Shown here: one piece after another, positions 20,201-45,021 of the stretch
Numbering within the stretch: the stretch's first letter is position 1
Layout: the number at the start of each line of letters is the position of its first letter
Origin: a virus
Strand: one strand, 5' to 3'
Length of the DNA stretch: 64,000 nucleotides
IMG/VR virus record: IMGVR_UViG_645058813_000002
Span: 6,606-70,605 of that record
Translations under genes and position numbers: made by a program
The notes under the pieces: generated by a model
Told to the model about the DNA's origin: nothing
The model's database searches: none
What the model saw: the letters and a program-made list of their open reading frames with translations, nothing else

Positions 20201-21444
20201 AACAACAAAAGATTATACAAAAAGAAGTTGATTACTACAAAGAAGCAGCTCAGGAAGAAATAGATGTATGCAAAGAAAATGCAAAGCAGCAATTAAATAT
20301 TGCAAAAGAAAAGCAATCTAAGTTAGAGCAATTGATAAAAGGTGTAACTACTGCATTAAAAGAACAACTTAATCAGCAAAAAGAAGCTACTATAAATGCT
20401 ATTGAAGCTGAAATGGATGCAGAGGAAAAAAGATATAATAAAAAGATTGCTAATATAGAGAAATCTACTAAACGAAAAGTTGAAGCGGTACAAAAAGAAA
20501 TTGCAGCTTTAGATGAAGAAAAAGAATCTGAAAGTAGATTAAAAGAAATACAAGAATCTAAAAACAATATTGCAGTTCTTGAAGCAAAGATGGCTAATAC
20601 AAAGTCAGAAGCTGATAAAAAAGCATATGCATTAAAAATTAAAAATGCTAAAGCGGAACTTTCTAATAAACAGAGTGATTGGGATAGAGAAGATGCCAAG
20701 AAGGAATTACAAGAAAGAATAGATGATCTTAATGTAAAAGCTGATACTAAAAAGCAACACTTAAAAGAAGATTATGAAGAAACTAAAAAGCATTATGAGA
20801 AGCAAAAGAAAGCAGCAGAAAATTATTATAAAACTCTTTTAGATACAGATAATTTAAATGCTCAAGCTAGATATGTACTATTAACTAATAGTAATGAACA
20901 GTTGGTACAATTATTAAACTCTTACGCTCCAAATTGGCAAAATGCAGGGCAATCTCTTGCAGATAGTCTTATTAATGGACTTAACAGTAAAAAGCAAGAT
21001 ATGGCTAATGCAGTACAAGAATTAACAAGTCTTAGAAGTAAGCAGGTAAGTGGATATGCAACAGGAACATCTTATAATAGATTAGCAGGTACGTATACAG
21101 TGGATGAAAAAGGCTTTGAATTATCTACTAATAATAATCCAGTCGCTTATGTTTCTAAAGGTGCAGGAATATTAAATCATATGCAATCTTTAAAAGCAAT
21201 TAAAGATGAAGTATCAAGTCAAGTTGCTAATCAAATGTCTATACTTAGAAATATAGTACAAGGTCAGCAACAACAAATGTATGCACTTGCAGGCGCTATG
21301 GCAGGAGTAGTTAATAATAGTAGTTCTATTCGTGAGGGAGACATAAACTTCAACGTAGATAAATACTACAACAATACTAAATCTGATATAAAAGAAACTG
21401 CAGAAGAATTAGGATTCTATGCTCAAAGAAAGAAAAGATGCTAA
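17299..21444 (+). CDS. Tail tape measure protein (TP901-type core) with long C-terminal coiled coil
   Basis: ASTKFSATESAEAMQYMAMAGW core, Trp-rich repeats, FDIHSPSRVM. Confidence 0.95.
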   Translation: MADGTVVIDTELDNSGIEKGWKEANTSAKAQAAKLAAEYKKQGMSASEAFKKAWSEIERDSKEKSNKTSDNWSSCSDKLKGIASEAAKIVATSIAGIGTTLGGIGAYAIKVGSDFEAGMSKVKAISGATASDMELLSAKAKEMGASTKFSATESAEAMQYMAMAGWKTEQMIDGIGGIMNLAAADGLDLATTSDIVTDALTAFGLQAKDSTHFADVLAQASSTANTNVSMLGESFKYVAPVCGSMGYTAEDTSIALGIMANSGIKASQAGMTLKNAIVNMASPTSNMQKIMDQYHLSLTNTDGSMKSLKEVMDMLRDKMGGLDQATQAAAASTLFGKESMAGMLAVINASDSDFDKLTDAINNADGAAQQMADTMNDNLQGKITLLKSALEGVGIALYDKFKEPLKDAIDTAADSMSSLVESISGGDLSGSIDKIADGFSKLIINVSDFAANALPTVLEGFAWLLDNSNTIATGIVGIGTAMLTLNVANMINGVVKAFQAARVAEEGLTVAQWLLNAAMDANPIGIVISIIAGLVAAIIYLWNTNEGFRNAIIGAWTAICDAASSIWGSICSFFTETIPAALNACIDFISSNWQNLLLLLVNQFAGAFALLYSNCDGFREFIDQFVQSVCDFFTETIPEALQSTGEWFSQLPNMIAYGLGAAVGAIAEWCVECYDYLSTNIPVWIDSIGTWFSNLPDAISTWLSQTISDIGTWGSNMLNTAINWVSNIISSIGNWFSQLPSSISNGLSSALNALINWGSNMLSSAVSACKEIVDGIVNAFIDLPSKMVEIGKNIVLGIKDGIKNAWDSMTGWIGGLCTSFVDGVKSQFDIHSPSRVMRDQVGKWIPLGIAEGLKATTGNLLDTATDICKQLSNTFTSELNANTAQRYIDTISNWGGSFAVLAEELQNAKDAVEISNAKSIDDNIWYRDAKYRLEDVKSKLEELSETISDTEDKSTKESLQTQQKALQKQQKIIQKEVDYYKEAAQEEIDVCKENAKQQLNIAKEKQSKLEQLIKGVTTALKEQLNQQKEATINAIEAEMDAEEKRYNKKIANIEKSTKRKVEAVQKEIAALDEEKESESRLKEIQESKNNIAVLEAKMANTKSEADKKAYALKIKNAKAELSNKQSDWDREDAKKELQERIDDLNVKADTKKQHLKEDYEETKKHYEKQKKAAENYYKTLLDTDNLNAQARYVLLTNSNEQLVQLLNSYAPNWQNAGQSLADSLINGLNSKKQDMANAVQELTSLRSKQVSGYATGTSYNRLAGTYTVDEKGFELSTNNNPVAYVSKGAGILNHMQSLKAIKDEVSSQVANQMSILRNIVQGQQQQMYALAGAMAGVVNNSSSIREGDINFNVDKYYNNTKSDIKETAEELGFYAQRKKRC

Positions 21445-27737: not shown

Positions 27738-28151
27738 ATGGAAAAAATTTTAAATGTATTACGTTATCTAGTTGCAATAATAGGAACAGGACTTACTTGG
27801 TTGTTTGGAACATGGGATATGGCATTAATTATTTTAATAATATTTATGGCTTTAGATTATGGGACAGGAGTTTTAAGAGGATATATAAATAAAGAGTTGT
27901 CAAGTAATGTTGGTTTAAAGGGTATAGCAAGAAAAGCAGTTATACTTATAGTTCTCATTGTAGCTGTATGTTTAGATAGACTTATAAATACTGGAGAGTG
28001 GATTTTTAGGACGACCGTTGCTTATTTTTATATAGCAAATGAGGGCTTAAGTTTAATAGAAAATTGTGCAACACTTGGTGCACCAGTTCCAGAAAAATTA
28101 TTAGATGCACTAGCACAACTTAAAGATGGAGAAAAAAAGCAATTTAGATAG
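27738..28151 (+). CDS. Holin (phage holin 4 family)
   Basis: LDYGTG...GLKGIARK...ANEGLSLIEN...GAPVP. Confidence 0.92.
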   Translation: MEKILNVLRYLVAIIGTGLTWLFGTWDMALIILIIFMALDYGTGVLRGYINKELSSNVGLKGIARKAVILIVLIVAVCLDRLINTGEWIFRTTVAYFYIANEGLSLIENCATLGAPVPEKLLDALAQLKDGEKKQFR

Positions 28152-28202
28152 TATTTTTAAGCTAACTAAATTATTCTTTTATATTAATAAGGAGGAGATT
28201 AT

Positions 28203-28988
28203 ATGTCTAATTGGAAATGGTGTGTTGAAGATACTAATGGAAAAGTTATAAAAGGTTGGTATGAAGACAACGGAACTTGGTACTATTTAAATGATGAAGG
28301 TGTAATGCAAACAGGGTGGTTAGAAGATAAAGATGGTCGTTGGTATTACTTAGATGAAAGTGGAGCTATGAAAACAGGTTGGTTAAAGGATAATGGTAAA
28401 TGGTATTATCTAAATCCTATAGGCAATGGTTACAAGGGAGAAATGTATGGTAACTGTACCGCTACTATAGAAGGAAAAGAATATAAATTTGATTCTACTG
28501 GTGCATGGATAGAAGATAGTTTAGTAAGTTCTAAAGGAATAGACTTTATAAAGTCGTGGGAGGGTTTTTATCCTAATAAGTATTATGATTGTGTTGGTGT
28601 TTTAACACAAGGTTACGGATTAACAGGAGATGAAATAAAAAATCTTCCAGAACAAATTTCTGAGTCTGAAGCAGCTGCATTATTAAAAAAAGTAGTTAAT
28701 AATAAATATGCTAAGGCTATAAAAGATGATTTAGATTCTAAAGGCATATGCCTAAAACAACATGAATTTGATGCATTAGTAAGTTTTGCATATAATTGTG
28801 GAACAGCAGGATTGTTAGGTTCTACACTATATAAAAATGTAATTGCAGGAATAAGAAATAAAGATACAATTACTTCTAACTTCCAAGCCTGGTCTAATGG
28901 GGGTGGTAAAAGAATAGAAGGACTTTACAGACGTAGAACTAAAGAAGCAGCTATGTTTTTAGATGGAGATTATACAGGTAATGTTTAA
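28203..28988 (+). CDS. Endolysin: cell-wall-binding repeats + GH24 lysozyme
   Basis: GW...WYYL repeats; IKSWEG...YYDCVGVLTQGYG; FDALVSFAYNCG; GLYRRRTKE. Confidence 0.92.
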   Translation: MSNWKWCVEDTNGKVIKGWYEDNGTWYYLNDEGVMQTGWLEDKDGRWYYLDESGAMKTGWLKDNGKWYYLNPIGNGYKGEMYGNCTATIEGKEYKFDSTGAWIEDSLVSSKGIDFIKSWEGFYPNKYYDCVGVLTQGYGLTGDEIKNLPEQISESEAAALLKKVVNNKYAKAIKDDLDSKGICLKQHEFDALVSFAYNCGTAGLLGSTLYKNVIAGIRNKDTITSNFQAWSNGGGKRIEGLYRRRTKEAAMFLDGDYTGNV

Positions 28989-29510: not shown

Positions 29511-29713
29511 TTATTTTCTATTCTTTATAAAAAATCTAAAGACAAAAAAGGGGTTTAATCCCAATTCTTTAGCTATTTTTAAAATTAAATTTATAGTTGG
29601 ATTACATTTATCTGGATGATTTTCTAATTTACTTACATAACTTTTGCTTATCCCTATTTTTTTGCAAATTTCAATTCAGTTAGATTTTTTTCTACTCTTT
29701 TCTTCTTTAGCAT
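29511..29713 (-). pseudogene. Small XRE HTH, paralogue of 32299-32514, frameshifted at an A7 run
   Basis: MLKKKRVEKNLTELKFAKK, shift, IGISKSYVSKLENHPDKCNPTINLILKIAKELGLNPFF; run at 29657-29663 is one base short. Confidence 0.85.
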
Positions 29714-29933: not shown

Positions 29934-30212
29934 ATGTTAGGTGAGAGATTAAAAGAATTAAGAGATGAGAGGGAATTAAAGCAAGAAGATGTTGCAGCTA
30001 AATTAAATATAGGTCGAAGTACTTATGCAAATTATGAAACAGAAAGAGCCGAACCAGGAATAGCTGTTTTAAAAGATATTGCAAGTTTCTATAATGTAAG
30101 TATAGATTTCTTGTGTGGATACACAAATATAAGAGAGCCTTACATTAAGGATAAGAGGAAATCAGAATATATTAATGATTGTTTAAAGACTTATGAAAAA
30201 TTTTTAAAATAA
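29934..30212 (+). CDS. XRE-family transcriptional regulator
   Basis: LKQEDVAAKLNIGRSTYANYE HTH. Confidence 0.93.
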   Translation: MLGERLKELRDERELKQEDVAAKLNIGRSTYANYETERAEPGIAVLKDIASFYNVSIDFLCGYTNIREPYIKDKRKSEYINDCLKTYEKFLK

Positions 30213-30375
30213 TTTTTTTTTTTCGCACTTTATTTGTATTGTGAAGTTATATGATAATGGTATAATCCTTTAAACATAAGAATTATTAACTTTTTCATAA
30301 GGTTATTTATAATTTGAATACTTCGCACTTTAATAAAAATTATGTATTATATAGTAAAGGAGAGATGGTGAAAAA

Positions 30376-31092
30376 GTGAAAAAGTCAAATAATATATGGA
30401 AAAATATTTCGATTTTTTTGGCAATTCTTTTAGTTGTAATAATACTAGGAGTATGTAACTTAAAGACATTTTTTAGAAGTAAGTTTTTAGATGTATTTAG
30501 AGAAAATATATTTTATCTAATTAACTTAATAGATAAATTTAAAGGAATAATACTAATATTTGTATTAATATTTATTTATTTTATTTTAAAAAGCAAATTT
30601 GTAATTAGATTAGAAAAAATGAGCTGTGGTGGTCTCACACTTATTTGTAATAAACCAGATAAAATATTAAAACAGAGTATTAAAAATTTTTTAAATACAA
30701 AAAGGACTTTGTTTTTTATAAATCCACAAAAGGATAATTTTTATGATACTATAAATTCCTATTATTCTACATACAATTTTATAAAAAATGAAATGTCAAC
30801 TTATGATATAGATTCTGTTAAGAATGAATTGTATGATACTGCCAATGAAATGATACAAGCTTTAAATGAGTTCTTAACTAATAATCAGAGTGATTATAGA
30901 AGATGGTATGAATATTTAATTAATAATGATGAAAAAAGAATACATGTTATGAATATTGAGGATATTCAAAAGGAGTATAGAAAATATGAAGAAATATTAG
31001 CTGATTTTAGATTGGTTAATAAGAAATTTGTTAAGTTAGGGAAACAATTTGATATAAATATGGATAAATGGAATAAAAATGAAGGAATTTAA
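30376..31092 (+). CDS. Two-TM membrane protein with unrecognised cytoplasmic domain; putative TIR-signal effector
   Basis: Two N-terminal hydrophobic segments; operonic with the TIR gene. Confidence 0.7.
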   Translation: MKKSNNIWKNISIFLAILLVVIILGVCNLKTFFRSKFLDVFRENIFYLINLIDKFKGIILIFVLIFIYFILKSKFVIRLEKMSCGGLTLICNKPDKILKQSIKNFLNTKRTLFFINPQKDNFYDTINSYYSTYNFIKNEMSTYDIDSVKNELYDTANEMIQALNEFLTNNQSDYRRWYEYLINNDEKRIHVMNIEDIQKEYRKYEEILADFRLVNKKFVKLGKQFDINMDKWNKNEGI

Positions 31093-31144
31093 CAAAAAAA
31101 GTAGAATATAGTATTTTATATGATATAAGAGAGGAGGAACTAAA

Positions 31145-31624
31145 ATGGCACATAAAGTATTTGTAAGCTATCACCATGCTAATGATCAAAGCAGAGCTAA
31201 TCATTTAAGAGATACTTATGGTTCTGACAATACATTGATAGATAGATCACTTGCAGATTCATATGATAATAAAACAGATGATGAAATTCTAGCATTAATA
31301 AGAAAGAATCATCTTAAAGATTCTACTGTAACTATAGTTTTAATTGGTAGTGAAACATCTAAACGTAAGTGGGTTGATTGGGAAATTTATTCATCATTAA
31401 GACCTTATGGAGATAGAAGTAGGAATGGGCTTTTAGGTATTTATTTGCCTACAGCTGGAGACACACCAGCAAGATTGCAAGATAATATAGATAGTGGTTA
31501 TGCTGTAACTATGAAGTGGGAAAATATTTCTTGGCAATTATCATCAAAGATTGATGAAGCATTTAATAACAGATCTAGTGGTAAACAGGATAATACTCGT
31601 AAAAGAAGAGAACGTAATAGCTAA
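31145..31624 (+). CDS. thsB: TIR-domain protein, ThsB-like (DUF1863/MTH538)
   Basis: KVFVSYHH, STVTIVLIG, RKWVDWEI (catalytic Glu), NGLLGIYLP. Confidence 0.9.
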   Translation: MAHKVFVSYHHANDQSRANHLRDTYGSDNTLIDRSLADSYDNKTDDEILALIRKNHLKDSTVTIVLIGSETSKRKWVDWEIYSSLRPYGDRSRNGLLGIYLPTAGDTPARLQDNIDSGYAVTMKWENISWQLSSKIDEAFNNRSSGKQDNTRKRRERNS

Positions 31625-31631
31625 AATTAAT

Positions 31632-31671
31632 AAGGGCAATATGTATATTAAATTCTACATATTGCCCTTTT
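31632..31671 (+). terminator. Terminator after the TIR operon
   Basis: 14-bp stem AAGGGCAATATGTA / TACATATTGCCCTT. Confidence 0.8.
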
Positions 31672-31735
31672 ATATTATTGACAAAAATTACATATATTAT
31701 ACAATAACCTTATTAAGCTTTTAGGGGGAATAATA

Positions 31736-32263
31736 ATGATTAAAAAAATTATAAGTATTTTGTTATGTAGTCTGATAATACTTGGTGTAACTGGTTGTGG
31801 AAACAAAGCACAAACAAAAACAGAAGAAAGTACACAAGTAACAGCTAATAAATCAGATGAAAAAGAAATAAAACTAAATGAACCATTTGAAGTAAAAAGA
31901 CCAGATGGAGATTATAATTTTACAATTAAAAGTGTAACTAAAACTGATTGGTGGAAAAAAGCAAAAGATAATGAAGATAAAACAGTTATATTATTAAATT
32001 TAGAATGTGAAAATATAAGTTTTAAAAGTAAAAATCATAATGGAGTTTTATTATATGATGCTTTTAATTTAAAGGATAATAGCAATTACATATTATCTAG
32101 ATTTTCTATGAGTTATGGTGATGTGAATTCAGGATCTGATGAAATACCACCTAATGCAAAATCTAAAGTATCAATTCCTTATGTAATTGATAATGATTCT
32201 ACTAGTGTAAGTATTGAATTTATAAGAGGAGGAATATTGAAAGATATTCCGATTACAGAATAA
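31736..32263 (+). CDS. Prophage lipoprotein (DUF4352/DUF5067-like)
   Basis: Signal peptide with lipobox-like VTGC, Ig-like beta domain; TTGACA-N16-TACAAT at 31678-31705. Confidence 0.75.
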   Translation: MIKKIISILLCSLIILGVTGCGNKAQTKTEESTQVTANKSDEKEIKLNEPFEVKRPDGDYNFTIKSVTKTDWWKKAKDNEDKTVILLNLECENISFKSKNHNGVLLYDAFNLKDNSNYILSRFSMSYGDVNSGSDEIPPNAKSKVSIPYVIDNDSTSVSIEFIRGGILKDIPITE

Positions 32264-32298: not shown

Positions 32299-32514
32299 TT
32301 ATTTATCTTGGTCTTTTATGTTTTTAACAAAGAATAAAAACACTTTTACAGGATTTAGAGAAAGTTCTTTAGCTAGTTTTAATATTAGCTTAACACCAGG
32401 ATTACATTTTTCTGGGTGCGTTTCTAATTTGCTTACGTGACCTTCACTTCGACCTATTTTCTTAGCTAACTCTAGTTCTGTCATTTGTTTCTGGATGCGT
32501 TTTTTCTTTAGCAT
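32299..32514 (-). CDS. Small XRE HTH protein
   Basis: MTELELAKKIGRSEGHVSKLE; divergent from 32682. Confidence 0.88.
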   Translation of the reverse strand: MLKKKRIQKQMTELELAKKIGRSEGHVSKLETHPEKCNPGVKLILKLAKELSLNPVKVFLFFVKNIKDQDK

Positions 32515-32681: not shown

Positions 32682-32966
32682 ATGTTAGGAGAAAGACTTG
32701 CAGAGCTAAGAAAAGATAAAGGACTTAAACAAGAAGATATAGGTAAGATTTTGAGAATTAGTAGAAGTACTTACGGGAATTATGAATCCGGATATGCAGA
32801 ACCTAGTGTATCTATATTAATAGACCTAGCTAAGTTTTATAATGTGAGTTTGGATTATATATGCTGCAATACAGACATTAGATACAATTTTTATAAAGAT
32901 AAAAGATTATGTGCTTATATTAACAAGTGCATAGAAGTATATAGAGAATTTCTAAAGAAGGACTAG
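32682..32966 (+). CDS. XRE-family regulator, paralogue of 29934-30212
   Basis: MLGERLAELRKDKGLKQED...SRSTYGNYE...EPSVS. Confidence 0.92.
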   Translation: MLGERLAELRKDKGLKQEDIGKILRISRSTYGNYESGYAEPSVSILIDLAKFYNVSLDYICCNTDIRYNFYKDKRLCAYINKCIEVYREFLKKD

Positions 32967-34708: not shown

Positions 34709-35785
34709 TTGAATTTTATTGGTATAGATGTTCATTTACATTCAGTAGTTGTTGCTGTCATAGATGAAAAGTTAAATATTATAGAAGTTAGTAATTTTTC
34801 TTTTGAAGAGGCAATAAATAAGATTCAAGCATATTTCCCTAGTATAATTTCTATAGATGCTCCATCAAGTTTGAATAAAGGTCTTATGAATGATGAAGAG
34901 TATAGAAAAAATATAGGGCGAAAGATAAAAGGTCACTATAATAAAAAGGTATCTGAATATGAACTTTCGAGAAGAGGAATAAATCCATTCCCAACACCAG
35001 ATTCAATAGAAAAAGTAAGAAGCAGAAATGATTTATCATGGATGGAGCAGGGATTTTGGCTATATAATAATTTATTTGAAAGAGGATATAGGCTCTTAAA
35101 TCAGAATAATTATGTGGATAGTATGGAGAAGGGGATAGTAGAAGTGTTTCCACATGCATCATTCTTAACTTTGGAGGGGCAACCATTACATAATAAAAAT
35201 ACTCCTGAAGGTTTAAATCAAAGGTGGCTATTGCTACAAAAATTAGGGCTGATTAACTTAGATTTTATTATGAAAGATATAAAAAACAAAGACAAAGATG
35301 ATTATTTAGATTCAATTGTTGCAGCATATACTGGATATGCAATTAGTAATGAAAAAGGTAGTTTTGTTGGGGATGCTAGTGAAGGGCAAATTGCTTTACC
35401 GATAAGAGATATTAAAGAATCATATAAAAGAAGTAAATATAAAGAAAAATCAATTGTTACAGAATATCGAAATGATGGTACTTATGAATATGAGTTTCTT
35501 CATAATGATAGTGTATTATGGCTAAAGTATTTTGCACCATTAAATAATACGCCTAATATAAAAGAAGTTCTAAATATTGAAGAAGATAGTTTTAGTGTAT
35601 ATGCGATTATAACTAATAATGAAGGAAAATCAGTTGAGGTAGAATTGATTAATATGAATGGTAGAACTCAAGGCTTAAAGGTTACGGATAAATATAAGAG
35701 CATTTTAAAACAATTTTGGGGAAGCCATGGTGATGGTATAAAATATAATATTAATTTAAAAATAAATAGACAAATTTATCAATAA
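34709..35785 (+). CDS. DUF429-like predicted nuclease (RNase H-like fold) with C-terminal extension
   Basis: FIGIDV, SIDAPS, VEVFPHA, DYLDSIVAAY. Confidence 0.8.
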   Translation: MNFIGIDVHLHSVVVAVIDEKLNIIEVSNFSFEEAINKIQAYFPSIISIDAPSSLNKGLMNDEEYRKNIGRKIKGHYNKKVSEYELSRRGINPFPTPDSIEKVRSRNDLSWMEQGFWLYNNLFERGYRLLNQNNYVDSMEKGIVEVFPHASFLTLEGQPLHNKNTPEGLNQRWLLLQKLGLINLDFIMKDIKNKDKDDYLDSIVAAYTGYAISNEKGSFVGDASEGQIALPIRDIKESYKRSKYKEKSIVTEYRNDGTYEYEFLHNDSVLWLKYFAPLNNTPNIKEVLNIEEDSFSVYAIITNNEGKSVEVELINMNGRTQGLKVTDKYKSILKQFWGSHGDGIKYNINLKINRQIYQ

Positions 35786-36102
35786 TATAAGTATAGAGAT
35801 CTAAGGGTCTCTATTTTTATTATATTTAAAGTAATATCAAATAGAATTGTGACTAGCATTTAAAATGAGGAAATGCCAGTATATTAGCGCTTTTAGGGTT
35901 GTGAGTACAAAGGCATTATAGGTGCAGGGGAATCACACATTTTTACGTATGGTTATTCATCTTATTCATATATAAAATGTATGTAAAAGTATGCAAAAAT
36001 GTATAATTATAAAAAAAGAACACAATAACATACAAATAACTTTACTTGGATAATTATGTATGATAACATATAATTACAAAATAGATACATTGGAGGATAT
36101 TT

Positions 36103-36678
36103 ATGGCTAAGGAAAAAAAGAGCGTTGCATTTAGCACTAGATTTACTGAAAGTATGGATAAAGCGTTAGAAGAGTTAAGCGATGTGAAAATGCTTACTAA
36201 ACACGATATTGTAAGGATAGCATTAGCAGAGTATTTATTAGATCATAAATGGCTTATTGATGAAAATGTGAAATATAAAAGAGACAAAAGTAAATTAAGA
36301 TATGATGATTTTGATTTAATAACAATAACTTCAACAAATACAGATAATAGTGGAAAGTGGGTAGAAGGAATAACTTTTGATGATAATGATACTCCTATTA
36401 ATTTTGTTAAATTAGTAAAAATAGAAGTAAATATTCCTTTATTAAAAGAAAAGGACAAAATCCCATTATTGATGGAACAATTAAAAAATTCTTCAGAGGA
36501 AGAAAAAAATCAAATAGAAAAGCAATTAATGGATTTAATATCCAGCCAATTTGTAGAGGAATATACATTAAAATATACAGAAGATGGATTAAAGATTAAA
36601 GAAGATCCAAAGTTTCAGCAATATGTTGAGAGGAGCGTTTCAGAAGTTATTGAAGAAATTCGTAATCCAAAAAAATAA
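36103..36678 (+). CDS. Ribbon-helix-helix-like DNA-binding protein
   Basis: N-terminal AFSTRFTESMDKALEELS...TKHDIVRIALAEYL. Confidence 0.6.
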   Translation: MAKEKKSVAFSTRFTESMDKALEELSDVKMLTKHDIVRIALAEYLLDHKWLIDENVKYKRDKSKLRYDDFDLITITSTNTDNSGKWVEGITFDDNDTPINFVKLVKIEVNIPLLKEKDKIPLLMEQLKNSSEEEKNQIEKQLMDLISSQFVEEYTLKYTEDGLKIKEDPKFQQYVERSVSEVIEEIRNPKK

Positions 36679-36710
36679 TTTATAGGTGAGAGTATGAGGG
36701 GGGATTAAAA

Positions 36711-38003
36711 GTGGAAACTTGTTTATATAACGGAAGACAGATATGTGCATATGATGTTACTAATTTAAATTATGCATTAAATTATGAATTGAAAAAAGAA
36801 TGGAAAATAGCAGGGAAGTATGGAGAATTAATATGTGAAAATTGTGGACAAGAAGTTCAACTAAGGGTAAATGACCCAAGACAAAGGACACCTCATTTTT
36901 CTCATAAAATAACTGATAATAAGTGTCCATTTACTAATAATGATTTTAGGGAATCAGAGGATCATAAGAAGGGAAAGATGCTTTTATATCATTATTTTAA
37001 GGATAAGTACTCAGATGTAAAACCAATGCTAAATCATAGATTTTCAAATAGAAGAAAAGAGGATTTATATATAGAATTCAACAATGGCGATAAACTAGCA
37101 GTAGAATATCAAAGAACAGAGTTGGATATATTAGAGTGGCAGGAAAGGCAAGATGAATACACCAAAGAAGGTATTAATGTTATTTGGCTAATTGCAGGGA
37201 AAGAAGCGGATTTAAAAGTTAAAGAGAAACAAGTGGAAGTAACATTTTTTCAGCAGATTATGCTTAATGAGTTGGACAAGGTGGCAGTATTTTTAGATGT
37301 TAATAGTTCAAAGTTAATTTTTGCGAAAAATATGAGGTACTCAGATCCATATGTTATTAATAACGATTTTGAAGATTTATATATAAAATCATATAACCTT
37401 AATGATGTTATAATTCACACTAATGGAAAAATAGATTGCGGTTTCAATGATGAATATAACAAGGCTATAAAGATATTTACTGATTATTATGCTAAAAAGT
37501 GCTTAAATGAAGAAAAGCATAGACAAAGATTAAAGGAAGAAGAAATTAAGAGTAGAGAGCAACTACATAAGATAGAGAATGATAAAATCAAAAGTCACCA
37601 AAGTTTTAGAGAAATTAAGTTAGATGTAGAGCAGCAAGAAGACACTAATAAATATTTTAATGGTAATATTTCATATAAAACCAAACTTAAAAATGCTATG
37701 AATGGTGATGAAAGTGCAATTAAAGCAACTGCTAGGCATTTTATAGAATGGGGATGTTCAGATGATTATAAGATAATAACTTTTATATGTAGATATAATT
37801 ATTTGAAAGGAAATAAAAAAGTTAAAGAAGTTTATGAAAAAATTATGACAGAAGCGGGTTTTGCAAGTGAAGATTTAGAATTAAAGGATTATAAAAAACA
37901 CTTAGAATGTCCATTTTGCAAAGGGAAACTTAATCAGAAATATGGTAAATATGGTTCATTTGTTTCTTGTAGTAATTATCCTGAATGTAAGTTTTCATTT
38001 TAA
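36711..38003 (+). CDS. CoiA-like PD-(D/E)XK nuclease with C-terminal topoisomerase-type Zn ribbon
   Basis: CENC...PHFSH...CP...ESEDH; DLYIEF...AVEYQ; CPFC...YGSFVSCSNYPEC. Confidence 0.8.
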   Translation: METCLYNGRQICAYDVTNLNYALNYELKKEWKIAGKYGELICENCGQEVQLRVNDPRQRTPHFSHKITDNKCPFTNNDFRESEDHKKGKMLLYHYFKDKYSDVKPMLNHRFSNRRKEDLYIEFNNGDKLAVEYQRTELDILEWQERQDEYTKEGINVIWLIAGKEADLKVKEKQVEVTFFQQIMLNELDKVAVFLDVNSSKLIFAKNMRYSDPYVINNDFEDLYIKSYNLNDVIIHTNGKIDCGFNDEYNKAIKIFTDYYAKKCLNEEKHRQRLKEEEIKSREQLHKIENDKIKSHQSFREIKLDVEQQEDTNKYFNGNISYKTKLKNAMNGDESAIKATARHFIEWGCSDDYKIITFICRYNYLKGNKKVKEVYEKIMTEAGFASEDLELKDYKKHLECPFCKGKLNQKYGKYGSFVSCSNYPECKFSF

Positions 38004-38045
38004 TGTTAAAAAATAAATATATTGAAATTTAGGAGGCAATGAATA

Positions 38046-38306
38046 ATGGAGAGAGTTATACAAGTAAATCAGAAACTATGTAAGGGATTAACATTAAATG
38101 AGGAATTTACATTGGATTTAAATGATGAACAAATAGATACATTAAGAGCCGTTGCAATACAATGTGATTGGGTTATGGGAGATGTATTTTCATATTTAGT
38201 TGAGCATGAAAATAGACAATTATTGATTCAATTATTTGAGGGTGATTTAGAGGATCTTAAAGAAAAACTAATTGAAGGAATTTATGACATAAACTTTGAC
38301 TTTTAA
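38046..38306 (+). CDS. Hypothetical protein
   Basis: 86 aa, AGGAGG RBS. Confidence 0.7.
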   Translation: MERVIQVNQKLCKGLTLNEEFTLDLNDEQIDTLRAVAIQCDWVMGDVFSYLVEHENRQLLIQLFEGDLEDLKEKLIEGIYDINFDF

Positions 38307-38400
38307 TTTATTGAATTTTTGGTAAGCATATAAAAAACAGGTAGTTCAAAATTGGACTACCTGTTGATGCATAAAACGAACATAATGATACTTATTTTGT

Positions 38401-39147
38401 TCAATCAGACAAATTGAAATTTGTAAAAGAATTCAAATTTTTAGCACGAGTTTCTAAACAAGTAATTGCATCTTTTATTGATTGAATAAAACCTTCTAAT
38501 TCTTCTTTTCCTTTAATATTTAATGGATTATTAGCGCTACCATCTTTCCATGGTGATTTATATTCTTCAAAAAATTCCAAACTATACTTTTTTTTATTTT
38601 TGTTTATCCAATCATATATATCAGGGAAATCATTTTCTGCTCTTTTATAATAAATATCGGGAAAATCATTATCCCTAGCATAATTACCTTTGCCATCATG
38701 TGTATAATTTTTAAAACTATATCCATTATAGCCTCTAGGAGCAGGCATGAAATTTGCCATAGAGTGATGCAAGTCAGCGAATTTATCAAACAATATTCTT
38801 AGTTCATCATACCCTTTAAATATATAGTCTAATTTATCAATGGCCATTTGAGGCGAAATATAAAATACATCTAGTATTCCTCTTGCAAACATAGAAAAAT
38901 AGTTCCAACAATTAAATATTGTGTCGCTACTCTCTTCAACACAGCCATAAATCTTTTTAAATAAGTTGGCTGTTATTGATTCACCCTCATACCGCTTTGA
39001 TCTTTCATTGTACATATCATACATATTGTCTGGATGATTAACATTTTCATTTGAACGATATTCCAATAAACCTATCAATCCATTTGAGGTTTTTTTATTT
39101 TTAGGAACCAATTCATTCCTAACACATTTCAAAAAAATCATTAGCAT
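38401..39147 (-). CDS. Hypothetical protein
   Basis: 248 aa minus-strand ORF, AGGAGGG upstream. Confidence 0.7.
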   Translation of the reverse strand: MLMIFLKCVRNELVPKNKKTSNGLIGLLEYRSNENVNHPDNMYDMYNERSKRYEGESITANLFKKIYGCVEESSDTIFNCWNYFSMFARGILDVFYISPQMAIDKLDYIFKGYDELRILFDKFADLHHSMANFMPAPRGYNGYSFKNYTHDGKGNYARDNDFPDIYYKRAENDFPDIYDWINKNKKKYSLEFFEEYKSPWKDGSANNPLNIKGKEELEGFIQSIKDAITCLETRAKNLNSFTNFNLSD

Positions 39148-39352
39148 CTTTTAATTCTAACAATTTATCCCTCCTGCAAATTTACAATTTATCTATAACT
39201 TTATAATTAATCGCTACGTCATATTATAGATAGTATATCATGATTTCTTATATCAACCTAATATATTAATAATATGTAGGAATTTGGATTATATACATGT
39301 ATAATTAGGATTGATTAAAATTTACAGAATTGAATGATATAGGAGAAAAGAG

Positions 39353-40819
39353 ATGAGTGGTGGAAGTGATGCAATAAGAGGATTCTATTTACAGACATGG
39401 ATTAGTATATTTGAAATGGTCAAAGATACTAAATGGACTAGCATTGAAATGGAACCAAAGCAAGATAAGATTGATATTTTGGTAAATTTTGAAAACAAAA
39501 GTATTAAGGTAATTCAGGTTAAATCATCCATAAATAACTTTCATAAGAGTAAAATAAAGGAGATACTGGAGTCTCTTATTGATGCAAATCCTAATGCAGT
39601 ATACTACGAGGTAGTATTAATAGGAGAAACTAATGTTGATTTAGAAAGTTTAATAAATGATATATGTTATGAAAAGGTAATAGATAAATCAATTAAGAAT
39701 ATAAATATTAAAGTTATACCATTAAATATTGAGAAAATTGAAGAAGATATAAAAAAGCAACTGCAGGAATATCTAGACTATTTAGGATATGATATGAAGG
39801 CAGAGGCTCTAAGTTTAATTAATAAATCTTTAGTTTCAGATTCATTAATAAGTGCTATAAAAAAAGATAAATATTATAAAGAGAATTTTGATGATAATTT
39901 AATATTACTTTCTGAATTAATGTATTCAGCCAACCAAGATAATAACATGCCGTTATCTATAAATATTAGTGAGAAAGGAATTAGACGTTACAAAAAAATA
40001 AAATTTATAAGAAAAATCTCCATTGCACTAGCGATTTTTTTTGGTATTAATCCATTTATAAAATTGTATATAGAAGGATTGACTTATTTGGATATAATCT
40101 GTAGCATTGGACTTGTTTGTATTTTAATAGGAGTGGTATTATTTTTTAGAAGAAGTGACTCTAAATTTAGGGAGATGGAAGATGATGAAATAGAAGAGTA
40201 TCTAAAAAATGAGGGATCTGCTGAGAATAGCATACTTAGAATAAATGTTTGGAATAAAACAGAGTATGAGAATAATAAGAAGCAAGTATATAGTAAAATT
40301 AATATTCAAAATAAAACAAAAGAAAAAATCGAACATATTGAAGGGAAAATCCAATTCAAACATGTAAACGAGGTGTTGTATGAATATCCTTTTGATAAAT
40401 CAGATATTGATGCATTTGAAAAAATCGTAATATTCAATGGAAGAGTTGTCCCTCAAAAAACTAAAAAATACTGGACCGATTTTAAGGTCAAAATAAAAGA
40501 ACTTAGAACTTGTGGAAGGAATTTGAATGATTTGGCAATTTACAGTGAGTCAACTTATAGGGTATATGGAACACTTTTAAATAGTTACTACTTACCTGTT
40601 ATTGATGAATTATTTCATTATGAATCAACAGAGGCTGTACATGAGATAAAAAAAATGTATTTTGGTATTCATTATTTAGTTAAATATATTAATTTAAAAA
40701 GGTTTTTCATTTTGATGCTTTGTGTGTTTATAGGATTAACTATAGTTATTTGCAGTTTTATAGGAATATATAACTTTTTATACTTACCAATAAAGTTAAT
40801 TTGTTTATTATTTAATTAA
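39353..40819 (+). CDS. Cap4/DUF4297-like endonuclease domain fused to a multi-TM membrane region
   Basis: SGGSDAIRGFYLQ...DKIDI...IQVKSS; two TM segments mid-protein and one C-terminal TM. Confidence 0.7.
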   Translation: MSGGSDAIRGFYLQTWISIFEMVKDTKWTSIEMEPKQDKIDILVNFENKSIKVIQVKSSINNFHKSKIKEILESLIDANPNAVYYEVVLIGETNVDLESLINDICYEKVIDKSIKNINIKVIPLNIEKIEEDIKKQLQEYLDYLGYDMKAEALSLINKSLVSDSLISAIKKDKYYKENFDDNLILLSELMYSANQDNNMPLSINISEKGIRRYKKIKFIRKISIALAIFFGINPFIKLYIEGLTYLDIICSIGLVCILIGVVLFFRRSDSKFREMEDDEIEEYLKNEGSAENSILRINVWNKTEYENNKKQVYSKINIQNKTKEKIEHIEGKIQFKHVNEVLYEYPFDKSDIDAFEKIVIFNGRVVPQKTKKYWTDFKVKIKELRTCGRNLNDLAIYSESTYRVYGTLLNSYYLPVIDELFHYESTEAVHEIKKMYFGIHYLVKYINLKRFFILMLCVFIGLTIVICSFIGIYNFLYLPIKLICLLFN

Positions 40820-40872
40820 TTTGATGACTATATAACAAATTGCTAAGTTGATAATTATAAGCAGAAAAATAT

Positions 40873-40904
40873 GAATGTATGATTTTATAGAAAATCGTAC
40901 ATTC
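40873..40904. promoter_or_regulatory. lox-like inverted repeat upstream of tyrosine recombinase
   Basis: GAATGTATGATT-TTATAGAA-AATCGTACATTC, one mismatch. Confidence 0.55.
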
Positions 40905-41036
40905 GCTAAATTGACTTTAAGTATTGATATATCTAAGGTTACAGGTGATATGGCTTGTGACCTTTTCTATTTATATCGTTTGAATGTAATGTTTTTGTGA
41001 TATAATAGAAAAATAATACATTGGAGCGGGAGGGGA

Positions 41037-41608
41037 ATGTGTATGGTTGTAGAGCCAATTAAAGATAAAAAATTGATTGAAAAGTTTTTAATACAACTTA
41101 GAGGAAAGAACTATAGAGATTGGATTTTAGCAAAATTCCAATTAAATACAGGATTGCGTATAAGTGATGTAGTTCGCATAAATACTTCAGATATTTTTAC
41201 TGATACGATGAGATTTAAAGATTACCTTGTTGTAAAGGAAAAAAAACAGGAAAAGAGAAAAAAATCAGATTAAATGAAGAACTCAGAAGGGCTATTAAAG
41301 ATTATGTTAGGGGATATGATATTAATGTAGGTGATTTCTTGTTTCAAAGTAGAAAAGGAGATAATAAATACATAAGTACAACTCAAGCATATAGAATATT
41401 AAAAGAGGCTGCTGATGCTGTTGGAATAGAGAATTTTGGAACACATAGTCTGAGAAAAAGTTGGGGGTATTGGACCTATAAGGTAAGTAGATACAACAGT
41501 GGATTAATTATGGATATGTTTAATCATACATCGGAAAAAATAACTCTAAGATATATCGGAATAACCCAAGAAGCAAAAGATGAATTATATTCCTTAGTTC
41601 AATTTTAA
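41037..41608 (+). pseudogene. Small tyrosine recombinase split by a 1-bp deletion in an A-run near 41239-41246
   Basis: NTGLRISD in the first ORF; GTHSLRKSWGY and FNHTSEKITLRYIG in the second; one added A gives KEKKTGKEKKIRLNE in frame. Confidence 0.88.
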
Positions 41609-42093
41609 CAAGAAAATAAGAAGAGTTAAATCTTTTATATACAATGAAAGAAATTTAACATAGATAATAATTAAGAGTAACATGCATAGGAGGAATACAA
41701 ATGTTACTCTTTACTGTATATTTAATAGGGTAAATATTTATGGAAAAAGTATTTACAAATCTATAAATTGCTTATTGTAAGGTTTATTTAAGTAGTTTTT
41801 TAAATTTTGATTAGTGTGTTAAAAGTAAATTTATTTAGTAGATAAATATATGTGATATTAAGAATTAAAAAAATATATGTAAAATAAGATATATTTATGT
41901 AATTATTGTATAATTAAAGATGAAATATTTAGAAAAAATTACTTTATCTTTTTTATGATTTAATAAAAATAGCATTTTGCAATTAGAATACTTACATATG
42001 CTTACTGGGTAACAGATAGTAGTTAATCTAAATATAAACATGTACAAATGAAACATTTTTCTTAAAGTTAAAAATAAGTTGCGAGGAGTTTTT

Positions 42094-45021
42094 ATGAATA
42101 GTGAATTGGATTATAAGAAAATAATTGATTTAATAGATTTTAAATTTTGTATTCCTTCATATCAAAGAGGATATAGATGGGATGATAACAATATTATAAA
42201 ATTTATAGAAGATATTTATGATGATAAGGCTTCTTTAATCAAAAAAATATTAGCAAACAATAGTTTGAATAAAAAATTAGAAAAAGTAAAAGAAGATTTT
42301 AAAAATGATATAGAATACTGCATTCAACCTTTAATTGTAAAGAAAGAAAATGAAACGTGGAATATCATAGATGGACAACAGCGATTAACAACTATTTTTA
42401 TTATGATAGCAGTTTTAAATTCATATGAAACAGATATATCTGGTGAATTTAAATTATCAATAAGTTATAAATCTAGAGCAATGAGTAAAGAATTTTTAGA
42501 ATTTTTATTAAAAATGACTAAAATTAATGATAGTACAAGTATATGGGAAAAATTTAAAGAAGCGAAGGGAGAAATTGAAAAAAATATTGATTTTGACTAT
42601 ATGGAGAATGCTTTTCATACAATTGATAAATGTTTTAAAAATTATTTGAAACAAAATAAAATTGAAGAGAATAAGGAATCATTTAGTTGTTTATTATTTA
42701 TTTTATTATATTTCTGTAAGTTTATTTGGTATCCGATAGATAGTGATGATAAAGATGAAAGAGAACAGTTTGCAAAAATTAATATGGGAAAAATTGAACT
42801 AACTGATGCAGAACTCATTAAAGCAGAATTTATGAATCCTAATAATTATTGTGACGAAAATATTAATCAGGTAAAAATTAGACAAACTATCATATCAGAA
42901 AGTTGGTATGCAATAGAAACGGAATTGCATAAACCAGATTTTTGGGCATTTATTCCACATGAGAATCAATATGAAGAAAATGATAAATATAAAACAAGAA
43001 TAGATATTTTATTTCATTTTGTACTTTTAGAAAACTGGATAGAAAAAAATAAAGACAAAGGTATTGATGAATACATTAATGAAAATGGAATGAAATTTAA
43101 TGAAGAACATTTTCTTTTCTATGAAATTAAAAAGTGGATAGATGAAGAAGAAAAAAATAAAAATTTAAATAAAAATGAAATAATTGAAGCCTGCTGGGAA
43201 AGAATTGTAGATATTTTTCAAAATTTGAAAGAATTATATGAAGATGATGGAAGAGAGTTAGAATGGAAAATAAATAATTCGAACAATAATAGTAGAAAAA
43301 AATATACAAATGAACAAGGATTATATAATTTGATAGGATTTCTTATATATTCATATAATTCTCAAAAGGATAATAAAAAATTTATTACTGGTAAAGAAAA
43401 TAACGTAGATAAATCTATAACAAAAGCATTAAAAATATATTATGAAATACATAATATATTAAAAGAAGAACGTTGTAATAGAATAAATATAATTAAACAA
43501 AAAATAAACAATCTTGTTTTTTCAATAAATGTAAATAGAGAAAAAGAAAGTATACAGTCAATTATAAAAAAAATGGAATATGAAGGTTTGTATGGTGATA
43601 AAATTGCAATTGTATTATTGCTATATAATATTATTTTAGTAAATAAATCTACTGGTATAGGAAATAGATACAATTTCCTTCAACATGCAAAAGAAAATTG
43701 GAGTAAGGAACATATTTTTCCTCAAGTAGCAAAAGAATTTATCAATGATAAAAATGAAAGGAAAGAAGTGTTAAAAGTATTAATAAAAGGAGTAAGAAAT
43801 AAAGTTATAGTTATAAAAAGCAGCCCTTTACTAAATTATATAAACTATAAATATGATAAAGTATATTCTCCTATTGATGGACTAAAAAATAAAGGAATTA
43901 TAGAATTAAATGAAAAAATAGTAGATGATTTTTTGAAAGAAAAAAATGAAGTTGATGTACAGAGTGGAAATATAGAAAATATGTATAGAATGGAATATGC
44001 TAAAAGTTTATATTTAATTAAAAAATCCCAAGAAATTTTAGAAATGTATGATATTTTGGAAGAAAATCAGGTATGCTTTGATGAAAATTTATTAAGAGAT
44101 AAAATGGGAAAATCAAATAATGATAATAAAATGAATTATATATTTAAATATAAAGATGTAATAATAGACTATGATAAAGATATATTAATTTCAAATCTTT
44201 TGGAATCAGAAATAAATAAAGCGGATCATAAAATATATATATATTTAATTAATAAGAAAATGAAAGACTTTTTTGAAATGTTAAGTGCAAAAATGGGTAT
44301 CATTAAAAATGAAAAATATGAAAGAATTAATATTAAAATTGAAGAGTACTATGAGTATATTTTAAATATAGAAATAGAAAATAGTGATCTATTCAAGCAA
44401 AATAAATCCGAAAAAGCAGGTCAAATAATTGAAGAAATTAAACAAATAATTAAAGAAGTTTATGATGATAAAATAAAAGAAATAACAATTTATGATATTG
44501 ATATAAAAAATAAAATATATAAATTAATTGTAGAATATAAGGATTTGGATGAAATTAAAAAAGTAATAGATAGCGATAAATTTCCAGAACTAAAGATTTC
44601 CAATACAATTGATGAAATTATAAAAAAGATGGACAATAATAATAGTAATTCAAAATTCTTGGATTTAGTAATAAAGATTAGTTCGGATACAATAAAGAAA
44701 AAAATAGATGATTTTTTTAAATATGAATATTTAGAACTTCTAAATGATAATTCTATGGGAAACATGACTTTGTTGGATGCGAAAACTAATGGTGATTCTA
44801 AAATTGGAAATAAACCCTATAATATAAAAAAAGAAAGAATATATAGTAAAATGAAAAAAGGGGTATTCATCCCACTTTCTACAATGCTTGTATTCACTGA
44901 TTTATATACAAAAAGTATGGGGATAAAAATTCATTGGTTACCAGAAAGCCGAGTGGAATATTTAAATGATATGGTAAATACAATTTGTGATTTTTTTGGG
45001 GAAAAGGTGAATAAGAGATGA
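42094..45021 (+). CDS. DUF262 + DUF1524(HNH) GmrSD-like protein
   Basis: IPSYQRGYRW, IIDGQQRLTT, KEHIFPQ...GNMTLL...N; ATG 42094 after GAGGAG. Confidence 0.85.
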   Translation: MNSELDYKKIIDLIDFKFCIPSYQRGYRWDDNNIIKFIEDIYDDKASLIKKILANNSLNKKLEKVKEDFKNDIEYCIQPLIVKKENETWNIIDGQQRLTTIFIMIAVLNSYETDISGEFKLSISYKSRAMSKEFLEFLLKMTKINDSTSIWEKFKEAKGEIEKNIDFDYMENAFHTIDKCFKNYLKQNKIEENKESFSCLLFILLYFCKFIWYPIDSDDKDEREQFAKINMGKIELTDAELIKAEFMNPNNYCDENINQVKIRQTIISESWYAIETELHKPDFWAFIPHENQYEENDKYKTRIDILFHFVLLENWIEKNKDKGIDEYINENGMKFNEEHFLFYEIKKWIDEEEKNKNLNKNEIIEACWERIVDIFQNLKELYEDDGRELEWKINNSNNNSRKKYTNEQGLYNLIGFLIYSYNSQKDNKKFITGKENNVDKSITKALKIYYEIHNILKEERCNRINIIKQKINNLVFSINVNREKESIQSIIKKMEYEGLYGDKIAIVLLLYNIILVNKSTGIGNRYNFLQHAKENWSKEHIFPQVAKEFINDKNERKEVLKVLIKGVRNKVIVIKSSPLLNYINYKYDKVYSPIDGLKNKGIIELNEKIVDDFLKEKNEVDVQSGNIENMYRMEYAKSLYLIKKSQEILEMYDILEENQVCFDENLLRDKMGKSNNDNKMNYIFKYKDVIIDYDKDILISNLLESEINKADHKIYIYLINKKMKDFFEMLSAKMGIIKNEKYERINIKIEEYYEYILNIEIENSDLFKQNKSEKAGQIIEEIKQIIKEVYDDKIKEITIYDIDIKNKIYKLIVEYKDLDEIKKVIDSDKFPELKISNTIDEIIKKMDNNNSNSKFLDLVIKISSDTIKKKIDDFFKYEYLELLNDNSMGNMTLLDAKTNGDSKIGNKPYNIKKERIYSKMKKGVFIPLSTMLVFTDLYTKSMGIKIHWLPESRVEYLNDMVNTICDFFGEKVNKR

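Follow-up and report, generated by a model that had tools for sequence, protein, structure and literature searches.

Is the two-gene operon in the cargo region of a Clostridium prophage, encoding a small membrane protein and a TIR protein, an anti-phage system of a new kind or a new member of a known one? The operon lies in a 64,000-nt stretch (the window, whose coordinates are used throughout) inside a 79.6-kb provirus record of IMG/VR (IMGVR_UViG_645058813_000002). An initial annotation made from the letters alone read it as a candidate new Thoeris-like system, in which a membrane effector senses a TIR-derived signal through an undescribed binding domain. Our analysis bears out that the operon is of Thoeris type and pairs a ThsB TIR with a membrane effector, and it leads us to conclude with high confidence that this is a prophage-encoded type VI Thoeris (ThsG-ThsB) anti-phage system, new as a member and not as a kind.

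Thoeris types V-XI were defined by Yirmiya et al. (bioRxiv 10.64898/2025.12.03.692087, Dec 2025). Type VI combines a TIR protein with ThsG, a “DUF6650” effector that in some cases carries N-terminal transmembrane (TM) helices (Yirmiya et al., 2025), and a preprint of June 2026 describes ThsG as membrane-spanning. Phage protection was reported for the type VI systems of Escherichia coli ACN001 and S1 and for three metagenomic systems, and Table S2 of that study lists ACN001 (TIR IMG 2638504641, effector 2638504642, “DUF6650 and TM”) among the validated defensive systems of type VI (Yirmiya et al., 2025). Using the window TIR as query, we found the ACN001 ThsB (WP_000549632.1) in NZ_CP007442.1, with a sequence matching the Table S1 entry. 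The stop of a gene for a 243-aa hypothetical protein (WP_000286099.1) overlaps the start of this TIR gene and, since the other gene flanking thsB is a portal pseudogene, WP_000286099.1 is the ACN001 effector. The window ThsG shares 34% identity with it over 235 residues (BLASTP, E 9e-46), a 17-sequence ThsG family profile aligns to it with an hhalign probability of 100% (E 7e-41), and the two ThsB proteins are 38% identical (E 1e-24). Given that both proteins are homologous to the ACN001 pair and that the gene order is the same, the window operon belongs to the validated ThsG-ThsB family. Neither the novelty of the system nor that of its binding domain is supported by this comparison, and the ThsG family was already described in the type VI preprint of December 2025.

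The likeness to ACN001 extends to layout: in both, thsG precedes thsB, and ThsG, about 240 aa long, has two TM helices at its N-terminus, followed by a hairpin and a helical domain. Both are carried by prophages, at a P2-like hotspot in E. coli and in a post-lysis cargo region in the window, and their hosts differ (Pseudomonadota and Bacillota, respectively). ThsB has 159 aa in the window and 205 aa in ACN001, where a Cys-rich C-terminal extension is confined to the E. coli protein. The ACN001 system (L022:4361-5709; NZ_CP007442.1 865360-866708) sits in its P2-like prophage between a replication endonuclease and DinI-like genes on one side and the truncated portal gene on the other; the ThsG-ThsB system is phage cargo in Enterobacteria too. 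Seven IMG/VR contigs (L032-L038) also encode ThsG proteins 34-35% identical to the window protein, a level equal to that of ACN001 ThsG.

A neighbourhood survey for TIR linkage, proposed in the initial annotation as a check, gave a uniform answer. Across the 38 loci reached via the effector (including seven distinct proteins from public assemblies, seven GTDB genomes and 18 IMG/VR viral contigs), a TIR gene stands directly 3' of thsG on the same strand in every case. Besides the 18 viral contigs, these loci come from Clostridia, Peptostreptococcaceae, Oscillospiraceae, Lachnospiraceae, Acinetobacter, Atlantibacter and Phytobacter. The partner is a ThsB-like TIR in 36 of them and a TIR_2 protein in the other two (L026, L029), and multiple thsB genes, known from classical Thoeris, occur in several loci (two or three copies). 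In the window the operon occupies the cargo (moron) region, 3' of the holin and lysozyme genes, and in two related loci (L001, L002) it likewise follows holin and endolysin genes. The position directly behind a lysis cassette and the small size of a ThsG with two TM helices would also suit other cargo functions that involve no small-molecule signalling: the two genes could form a toxin-antitoxin pair, or ThsG could be a membrane protein of holin-like or superinfection-exclusion type accompanied by an accessory TIR. We consider such a role extremely improbable, given that the thsG-TIR pair is also found away from lysis genes and outside prophages (beside resolvases and in TIR-rich defence islands), that homologues are experimentally defensive, and that the prophage already has a holin of its own.

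The operon itself is as first described. The two open reading frames (ORFs) are separated by 52 nt and share one strong terminator, whose predicted fold (dG -19 kcal/mol, z = -5.9) was equalled by none of 200 shuffled sequences. ThsB matches Pfam ThsB_TIR (PF08937, 1.2e-21) and PADLOC ThsB/PDC-M50B (about 1e-20), and its nearest solved structures are ThsB1 (9b7d) and Bacillus cereus ThsB (6lhy). Its WVDWE motif covers residues 76-80, and E80, the intact Glu of the initial annotation, aligns with the Glu of “WVRYEI” in both structures, a residue known to be catalytic in B. cereus ThsB. From this alignment E80 is a candidate catalytic Glu, and ThsB is presumed both to sense infection and to synthesise the signal. 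Identity among the ThsBs of Clostridium, Paenibacillus, Bacillus, Brevibacillus, Cohnella, Pectinatus and Oscillospiraceae is 75-88%, and ThsG identity is only 40-59% even within Clostridia, so that the effector is far less conserved than the TIR protein. Stronger conservation of ThsB than of ThsG is unexpected for a component thought to sense phages.

Hydropathy places the TM segments of ThsG at residues 11-29 and 58-76, and an AlphaFold2 (AF2) model (mean predicted local distance difference test score 81) shows a beta-hairpin at 76-92 and an all-helical, four-helix domain at 94-234, predicted to be cytoplasmic; two TM helices and a helical domain had been read from the sequence at the outset. 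Likewise as first noted, SIR2, SLOG, Macro and caspase domains gave no match to ThsG in Pfam, PADLOC, NCBIfam or PHROGs, and neither did DUF2270 (PF10028) or SLATT, for which the search extended up to E 10. Sub-threshold matches to Tweety, DUF6712 and ZorB/MotB in the same databases were dismissed as TM or coiled-coil artefacts. The view that the fold of the C-terminal domain is an unfamiliar one held against solved structures: Foldseek returned no PDB match to the model at E <= 1e-3, VIA-align against 48k PDB chains gave only generic four-helix bundles (Z <= 8.7, under the tool's stated noise level for helical bundles), and a sequence profile found no specific PDB match. The HEPN fold, a weak row in the fold comparison, was rejected because ThsG has no conserved Rx4-6H motif.

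By sequence, the close relatives of ThsG form a small family of 18 clusters, mostly from Clostridium, and a profile search retrieved 324 representatives at 50% identity. A wider alignment of 23 sequences, assembled from hits of the representative search and two further proteins taken from the fetched loci, comprises a 2-TM group (the window protein, Clostridia and Enterobacteria) and a 1-TM group (many Pseudomonadota, plus Bacillus, Brevibacillus and Cohnella). Motifs common to both are T-[KR]-[KR]; D..xE.Y-x-S-[WY]-Y; L-N....L-T-x-x-Q-x-x-[YF]-[RK]-[RK]-[WF]; Q-x-x-[YF]-x-x-Y; and V-N. The conserved basic and aromatic residues of the alignment include K109/R110, R175/R176/W177/Y178 and Y201/Y204. 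A 1-TM ThsG-like protein of Bacillus and Brevibacillus is encoded 3' of a ThsB that has 76% identity to that of the window, and it aligns with ThsG at an hhalign probability of 97-98% (E about 1e-11 to 1e-12).

How the system might work can be sketched from its homologues. Type VI ThsB produces 2' cyclic ADP-ribose (2'cADPR) upon infection, exogenous 2'cADPR causes growth arrest via ThsG, and an AlphaFold 3 model shows ThsG as a hexameric tube with positively charged pockets (Yirmiya et al., 2025). By analogy, the ThsB of the window would remain inactive until another phage infects the lysogen, and would then turn NAD+ into a cyclic ADP-ribose-type signal, 2'cADPR if it resembles the characterised type VI enzymes. 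ThsG, presumably anchored in the membrane by its two N-terminal helices with the helical domain in the cytoplasm, would form an oligomeric ring that binds the signal, probably in pockets lined by the conserved basic and aromatic residues; the pairs K109/R110 and R175/R176 appear compatible with the positively charged pockets of the modelled ring. The 2-TM part may then perturb the membrane and bring about growth arrest, so that the infecting phage could not finish its cycle. ThsB activation, signal synthesis, ThsG binding and growth arrest are steps shown for homologues; that arrest blocks the phage is an interpretation by the authors of the type VI work, by analogy with other Thoeris systems, and membrane damage as the mode of killing is a suggestion of theirs that we share.

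Some bacterial TIRs are NADase effectors, and the preprint allows this for unverified types. The TIR could accordingly be an NAD+-depleting toxin in its own right, with the membrane protein as its sensor, anchor or regulator and no signalling between them. This appears very unlikely here: the window TIR is small, stand-alone, of ThsB type and nearest to solved ThsBs that produce signals, the occurrence of several thsB genes around one thsG fits a “many sensors, one effector” scheme, exogenous 2'cADPR acts by way of ThsG in homologous type VI systems, and the conserved basic and aromatic residues of ThsG are typical of a nucleotide pocket.

Several observations weigh against assigning the operon to type VI as characterised. 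Firstly, the Pfam model of DUF6650 (PF20355) gave no hmmscan hit to the window ThsG or to seven homologues at E values up to 10, nor was there any hit in the provirus, the ACN001 chromosome and five ThsG-bearing genomes. Because the validated ACN001 ThsG is missed as well, this miss is not decisive as to membership. Five Clostridium homologues of ThsG do have a precomputed PF20355 hit, the single one rated being “weak”. Secondly, a broad ThsG alignment (A2) compared by hhalign with an alignment of six genuine DUF6650 proteins (A4) reached a probability of 48% (E 1.9e-4) across 91 columns, which take in only the domain's first half with the hairpin, an L-x-x-K-R-x-L-F motif and the following two helices, and alignment A1 reached 9.5% against A4. 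Thirdly, expression evidence is limited to a single contig assembled from one RNA-seq library (run X1), a 494-nt exact match to 31140-31633 that begins 5 nt before thsB and ends at the base of the terminator; none of the assembled RNA contigs covers thsG. The pattern may come from a transcript of thsB by itself or just from the assembly. The last two points concern the signal: two of the five validated type VI systems showed no detectable 2'cADPR, and ThsBs 75-80% identical to that of the window are paired elsewhere, in Pectinatus, with TIR-SLOG effectors of type IX, a pairing that speaks against taking 2'cADPR for granted.

The link between ThsG and DUF6650 is best described as a possible remote homology limited to the domain's first half. 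When a genuine DUF6650 protein was modelled with AF2, the model matched the DUF6650 cluster of the Atlas (TM-score 0.80 by the model and 0.83 by the cluster representative), and this model and that of ThsG have in common six of their top 30 fold clusters in the AlphaFold database (AFDB). One of the six genuine DUF6650 proteins is followed by a 308-aa protein whose C-terminal sequence, judged by eye, is TIR-like. In the type VI systems with a soluble DUF6650 ThsG (Bacillus metagenomic scaffolds), as in the window, a TIR gene adjoins a small helical effector, and the hairpin, L-[EN]-x-K-R-x-L-F and M-I-x-x-x-N-x-x-L are motifs common to the first halves of both effectors. On the other hand, the soluble proteins are without TM helices and their TIRs belong to a different clade (TIR_2-like, cluster 2727116859), whereas the second half of the window ThsG, with its conserved YRRWYEY and IQKxY, has no aligned counterpart in them.

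Which molecule carries the signal is less clear. 2'cADPR was shown for three type VI systems (Yirmiya et al., 2025). The two validated systems with no detectable 2'cADPR are probably ACN001 and S1, the E. coli pair closest to the window, in which case 2'cADPR has been shown only for the group with soluble DUF6650 ThsG. The ThsBs of ACN001 and S1 fall in TIR cluster 2741407742 and those of the other three type VI systems, two of which served in the 2'cADPR feeding assays, in cluster 2727116859. The type IX TIR that was assayed makes 3'cADPR. Taking together the two systems without 2'cADPR, the different TIR cluster and the near-identical ThsBs paired with type IX effectors, we regard the signal as uncertain for this clade and give about equal weight to 2'cADPR and to another ADP-ribose (ADPR)-derived molecule.

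The same observations can be read as one architecture with a different messenger, such that the clade (the window, Clostridia, ACN001 and S1) uses 3'cADPR, canonical cADPR or an undescribed ADPR-derived signal. This would refine the type VI assignment into a functional sub-type and not replace it. It is favoured by the PF08937-type ThsB that the window has in common with ACN001, by the pairing of ThsBs 75-80% identical to that of the window with type IX TIR-SLOG effectors in Pectinatus and the islands that they share, and by the merely remote relation of the 2-TM ThsG to Pfam DUF6650 proper, and Yirmiya et al. (2025) themselves allow for another signal. However, they offer production under the detection limit equally, their paper does not name the two systems, whose identification as ACN001 and S1 is our inference, and 2-TM ThsG is also paired with TIR_2-type TIRs (L026, L029), so that the coupling between TIR and effector clades is not strict. 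On balance, a different messenger is a possibility that we take seriously but do not favour. A fuller version, in which the clade of 2-TM ThsG and PF08937-type ThsB is a distinct functional sub-type with a signal other than 2'cADPR, possibly undescribed, and a ligand domain distant from DUF6650, is slightly less probable. If it were true, the highly conserved ThsB of this clade would supply one and the same molecule to at least three effector families: 2-TM ThsG, the 1-TM ThsG-like protein of Bacilli and TIR-SLOG ThsJ. Since this ThsB is conserved (75-88% identity) across many Bacillota genera with several effector families, and the clade probably includes both systems without a detected signal, it is a good place to seek the missing molecule.

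Among other Thoeris types, type II comes close in having a 2-TM effector beside a ThsB TIR and, presumably in common with the window, a membrane-targeting abortive or growth-arrest logic. Its effector ThsC carries a Macro domain and responds to histidine-ADPR (His-ADPR), whereas the window ThsG has no Macro match in Pfam, PADLOC or NCBIfam and an all-helical cytoplasmic domain. ThsA of type I is a SIR2-SLOG protein, and ThsG has neither SIR2 nor SLOG hits in those databases. Types V and VII also use small TM effectors (ThsF, DUF2270 with three TM helices, and ThsH, SLATT), predicted to be oligomers with positively charged pockets between protomers; their DUF2270 and SLATT domains are not matched in the window ThsG, and their signals are 3'cADPR and canonical cADPR.

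The window thus extends type VI Thoeris to Clostridium prophages, as cargo right 3' of the lysis genes, and with Thoeris carried in this way a temperate phage would equip its lysogen to resist other phages. The Pfam and PADLOC (2023) models miss the 2-TM ThsG clade, and scans of genomes will go on reporting it as new until they use more recent models.

Some of the related loci have gene arrangements worth recording. The two TIR_2 partners of 2-TM ThsG are a 429-aa TIR_2-HD (YfbR-like) fusion (L026:4445-5734) and a 201-aa TIR_2 protein followed by a gene of the PNP_UDP_1 phosphorylase family (L029:4470-6365). In L008:1121-6519, and also in L009-L011, genes for ThsB, 2-TM ThsG, ThsB, a 672-aa TIR-SLOG protein (type IX ThsJ-like) and ThsB follow one another in one orientation, and in Bacillus toyonensis (L014:1-4160) a TIR-SLOG gene, two TIRs and a ThsB/ThsG-like pair are grouped. 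That ThsG and ThsJ are found together with one and the same ThsB clade hints that they share a signal. In Brevibacillus (L016:2566-2901 and L017:2566-2901), a Tad2-like gene (PF11195) lies ~100 nt 5' of, and co-oriented with, the ThsB and 1-TM ThsG-like pair. Tad2 is an anti-Thoeris sponge family, and its presence beside a system that it could silence might reflect self-regulation or a phage carrying both.

The features of the operon and its surroundings are collected in Table 1. The late region upstream is siphovirus-like, with large ORFs that include a 1381-aa gene of tape-measure size at 17299-21444.

Table 1. Features in and around the thsG-thsB operon (window coordinates).
Feature	Position	Strand	Basis
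Holin, prophage lysis cassette (27738-28988)	27738-28151	+	Pfam Phage_holin_4_1, 1.7e-40
Lysozyme with choline-binding repeats, same cassette	28203-28988	+	Pfam Phage_lysozyme, 1e-29
XRE-family helix-turn-helix (HTH) gene	29934-30212	+	Pfam HTH_3, 3.7e-16
24-nt direct repeat (D5), 79% identity, TTCGCACTTTA core	30209-30232 and 30309-30332	+	repeat scan
Candidate promoter near thsG, TTCGCA-17-TATTAT	30322-30350	+	consensus scan; alignment with L030
thsG, 238 aa, GTG start; ribosome-binding site AAAGGAGAG at 30358-30366	30376-31092	+	ORF list
thsB, 159 aa; ribosome-binding site GAGAGGAGG at about 31130-31138	31145-31624	+	ORF list; Pfam ThsB_TIR
Intrinsic terminator, 14-bp stem (31632-31669) and UUUU tract	31632-31673	+	inverted repeat I11; RNA fold

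A second provirus (L030) carries an identical thsG-thsB-lipoprotein block and helps to delimit the cassette. Its homology to the window starts at ~30328, inside the second copy of TTCGCACTTTA, and it keeps the -10 element of the candidate thsG promoter and all sequence 3' of it, the -35 element not being kept; the promoter is a candidate by its sequence. A 4-codon mini-ORF (ATG GTG AAA AAG TGA) at 30366-30380 overlaps the GTG start of thsG within a GTGAAAAAG tandem duplication, and is kept in L030 with one synonymous change.

The initial annotation had also pointed to the 11-mer TTCGCACTTTA upstream of the operon. The two exact copies, at 30222 and 30322 and 100 bp apart, are real, and the 24-nt repeats around them sit between the HTH gene and the left boundary of the cassette (about 30328); the repeat statistics are modest, as 13 of 100 shuffles give at least three matches at one mismatch or fewer. 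A role as conserved operator of the system was ruled out: no copy of the 11-mer is present in any of the 56 fetched loci, so that it lies outside the conserved system. It appears to be specific to this flank, possibly an operator of the HTH protein or a module or recombination junction. The HTH gene is missing upstream of thsG in L001, L002 and L030, and is a neighbour and not a conserved component; a paralogue with 55% identity to it lies at 32682-32966. A 150-nt direct repeat (29514-29663 and 32314-32463, 70% identity, 2800 nt apart) overlaps a minus-strand HTH gene at 32299-32514 in its downstream copy and contains no intact ORF in its upstream copy. The duplicated HTH genes and the repeat suggest tandem “regulator + cargo” modules in this prophage.

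Downstream of the operon, a lipoprotein gene (31736-32263; DUF5067/DUF4352, phrog_806) has its own near-consensus promoter, TTGACA-16-TACAAT, at 31678-31705 and accompanies the Thoeris operon in L030; its product may act at the surface or in exclusion. More genes that are candidates for defence or nuclease functions follow at 34709-47777. These encode a DUF429 protein with a weak PDC-S44 match (34709-35785), a CoiA-like nuclease with a Zn-ribbon (36711-38003), a protein matching the PADLOC “Effector endonuclease” model (39353-40819, 4.6e-23), and a 980-aa GmrSD_N/SspE-like protein (42079-45021) overlapped by a 919-aa ORF (45018-47777).

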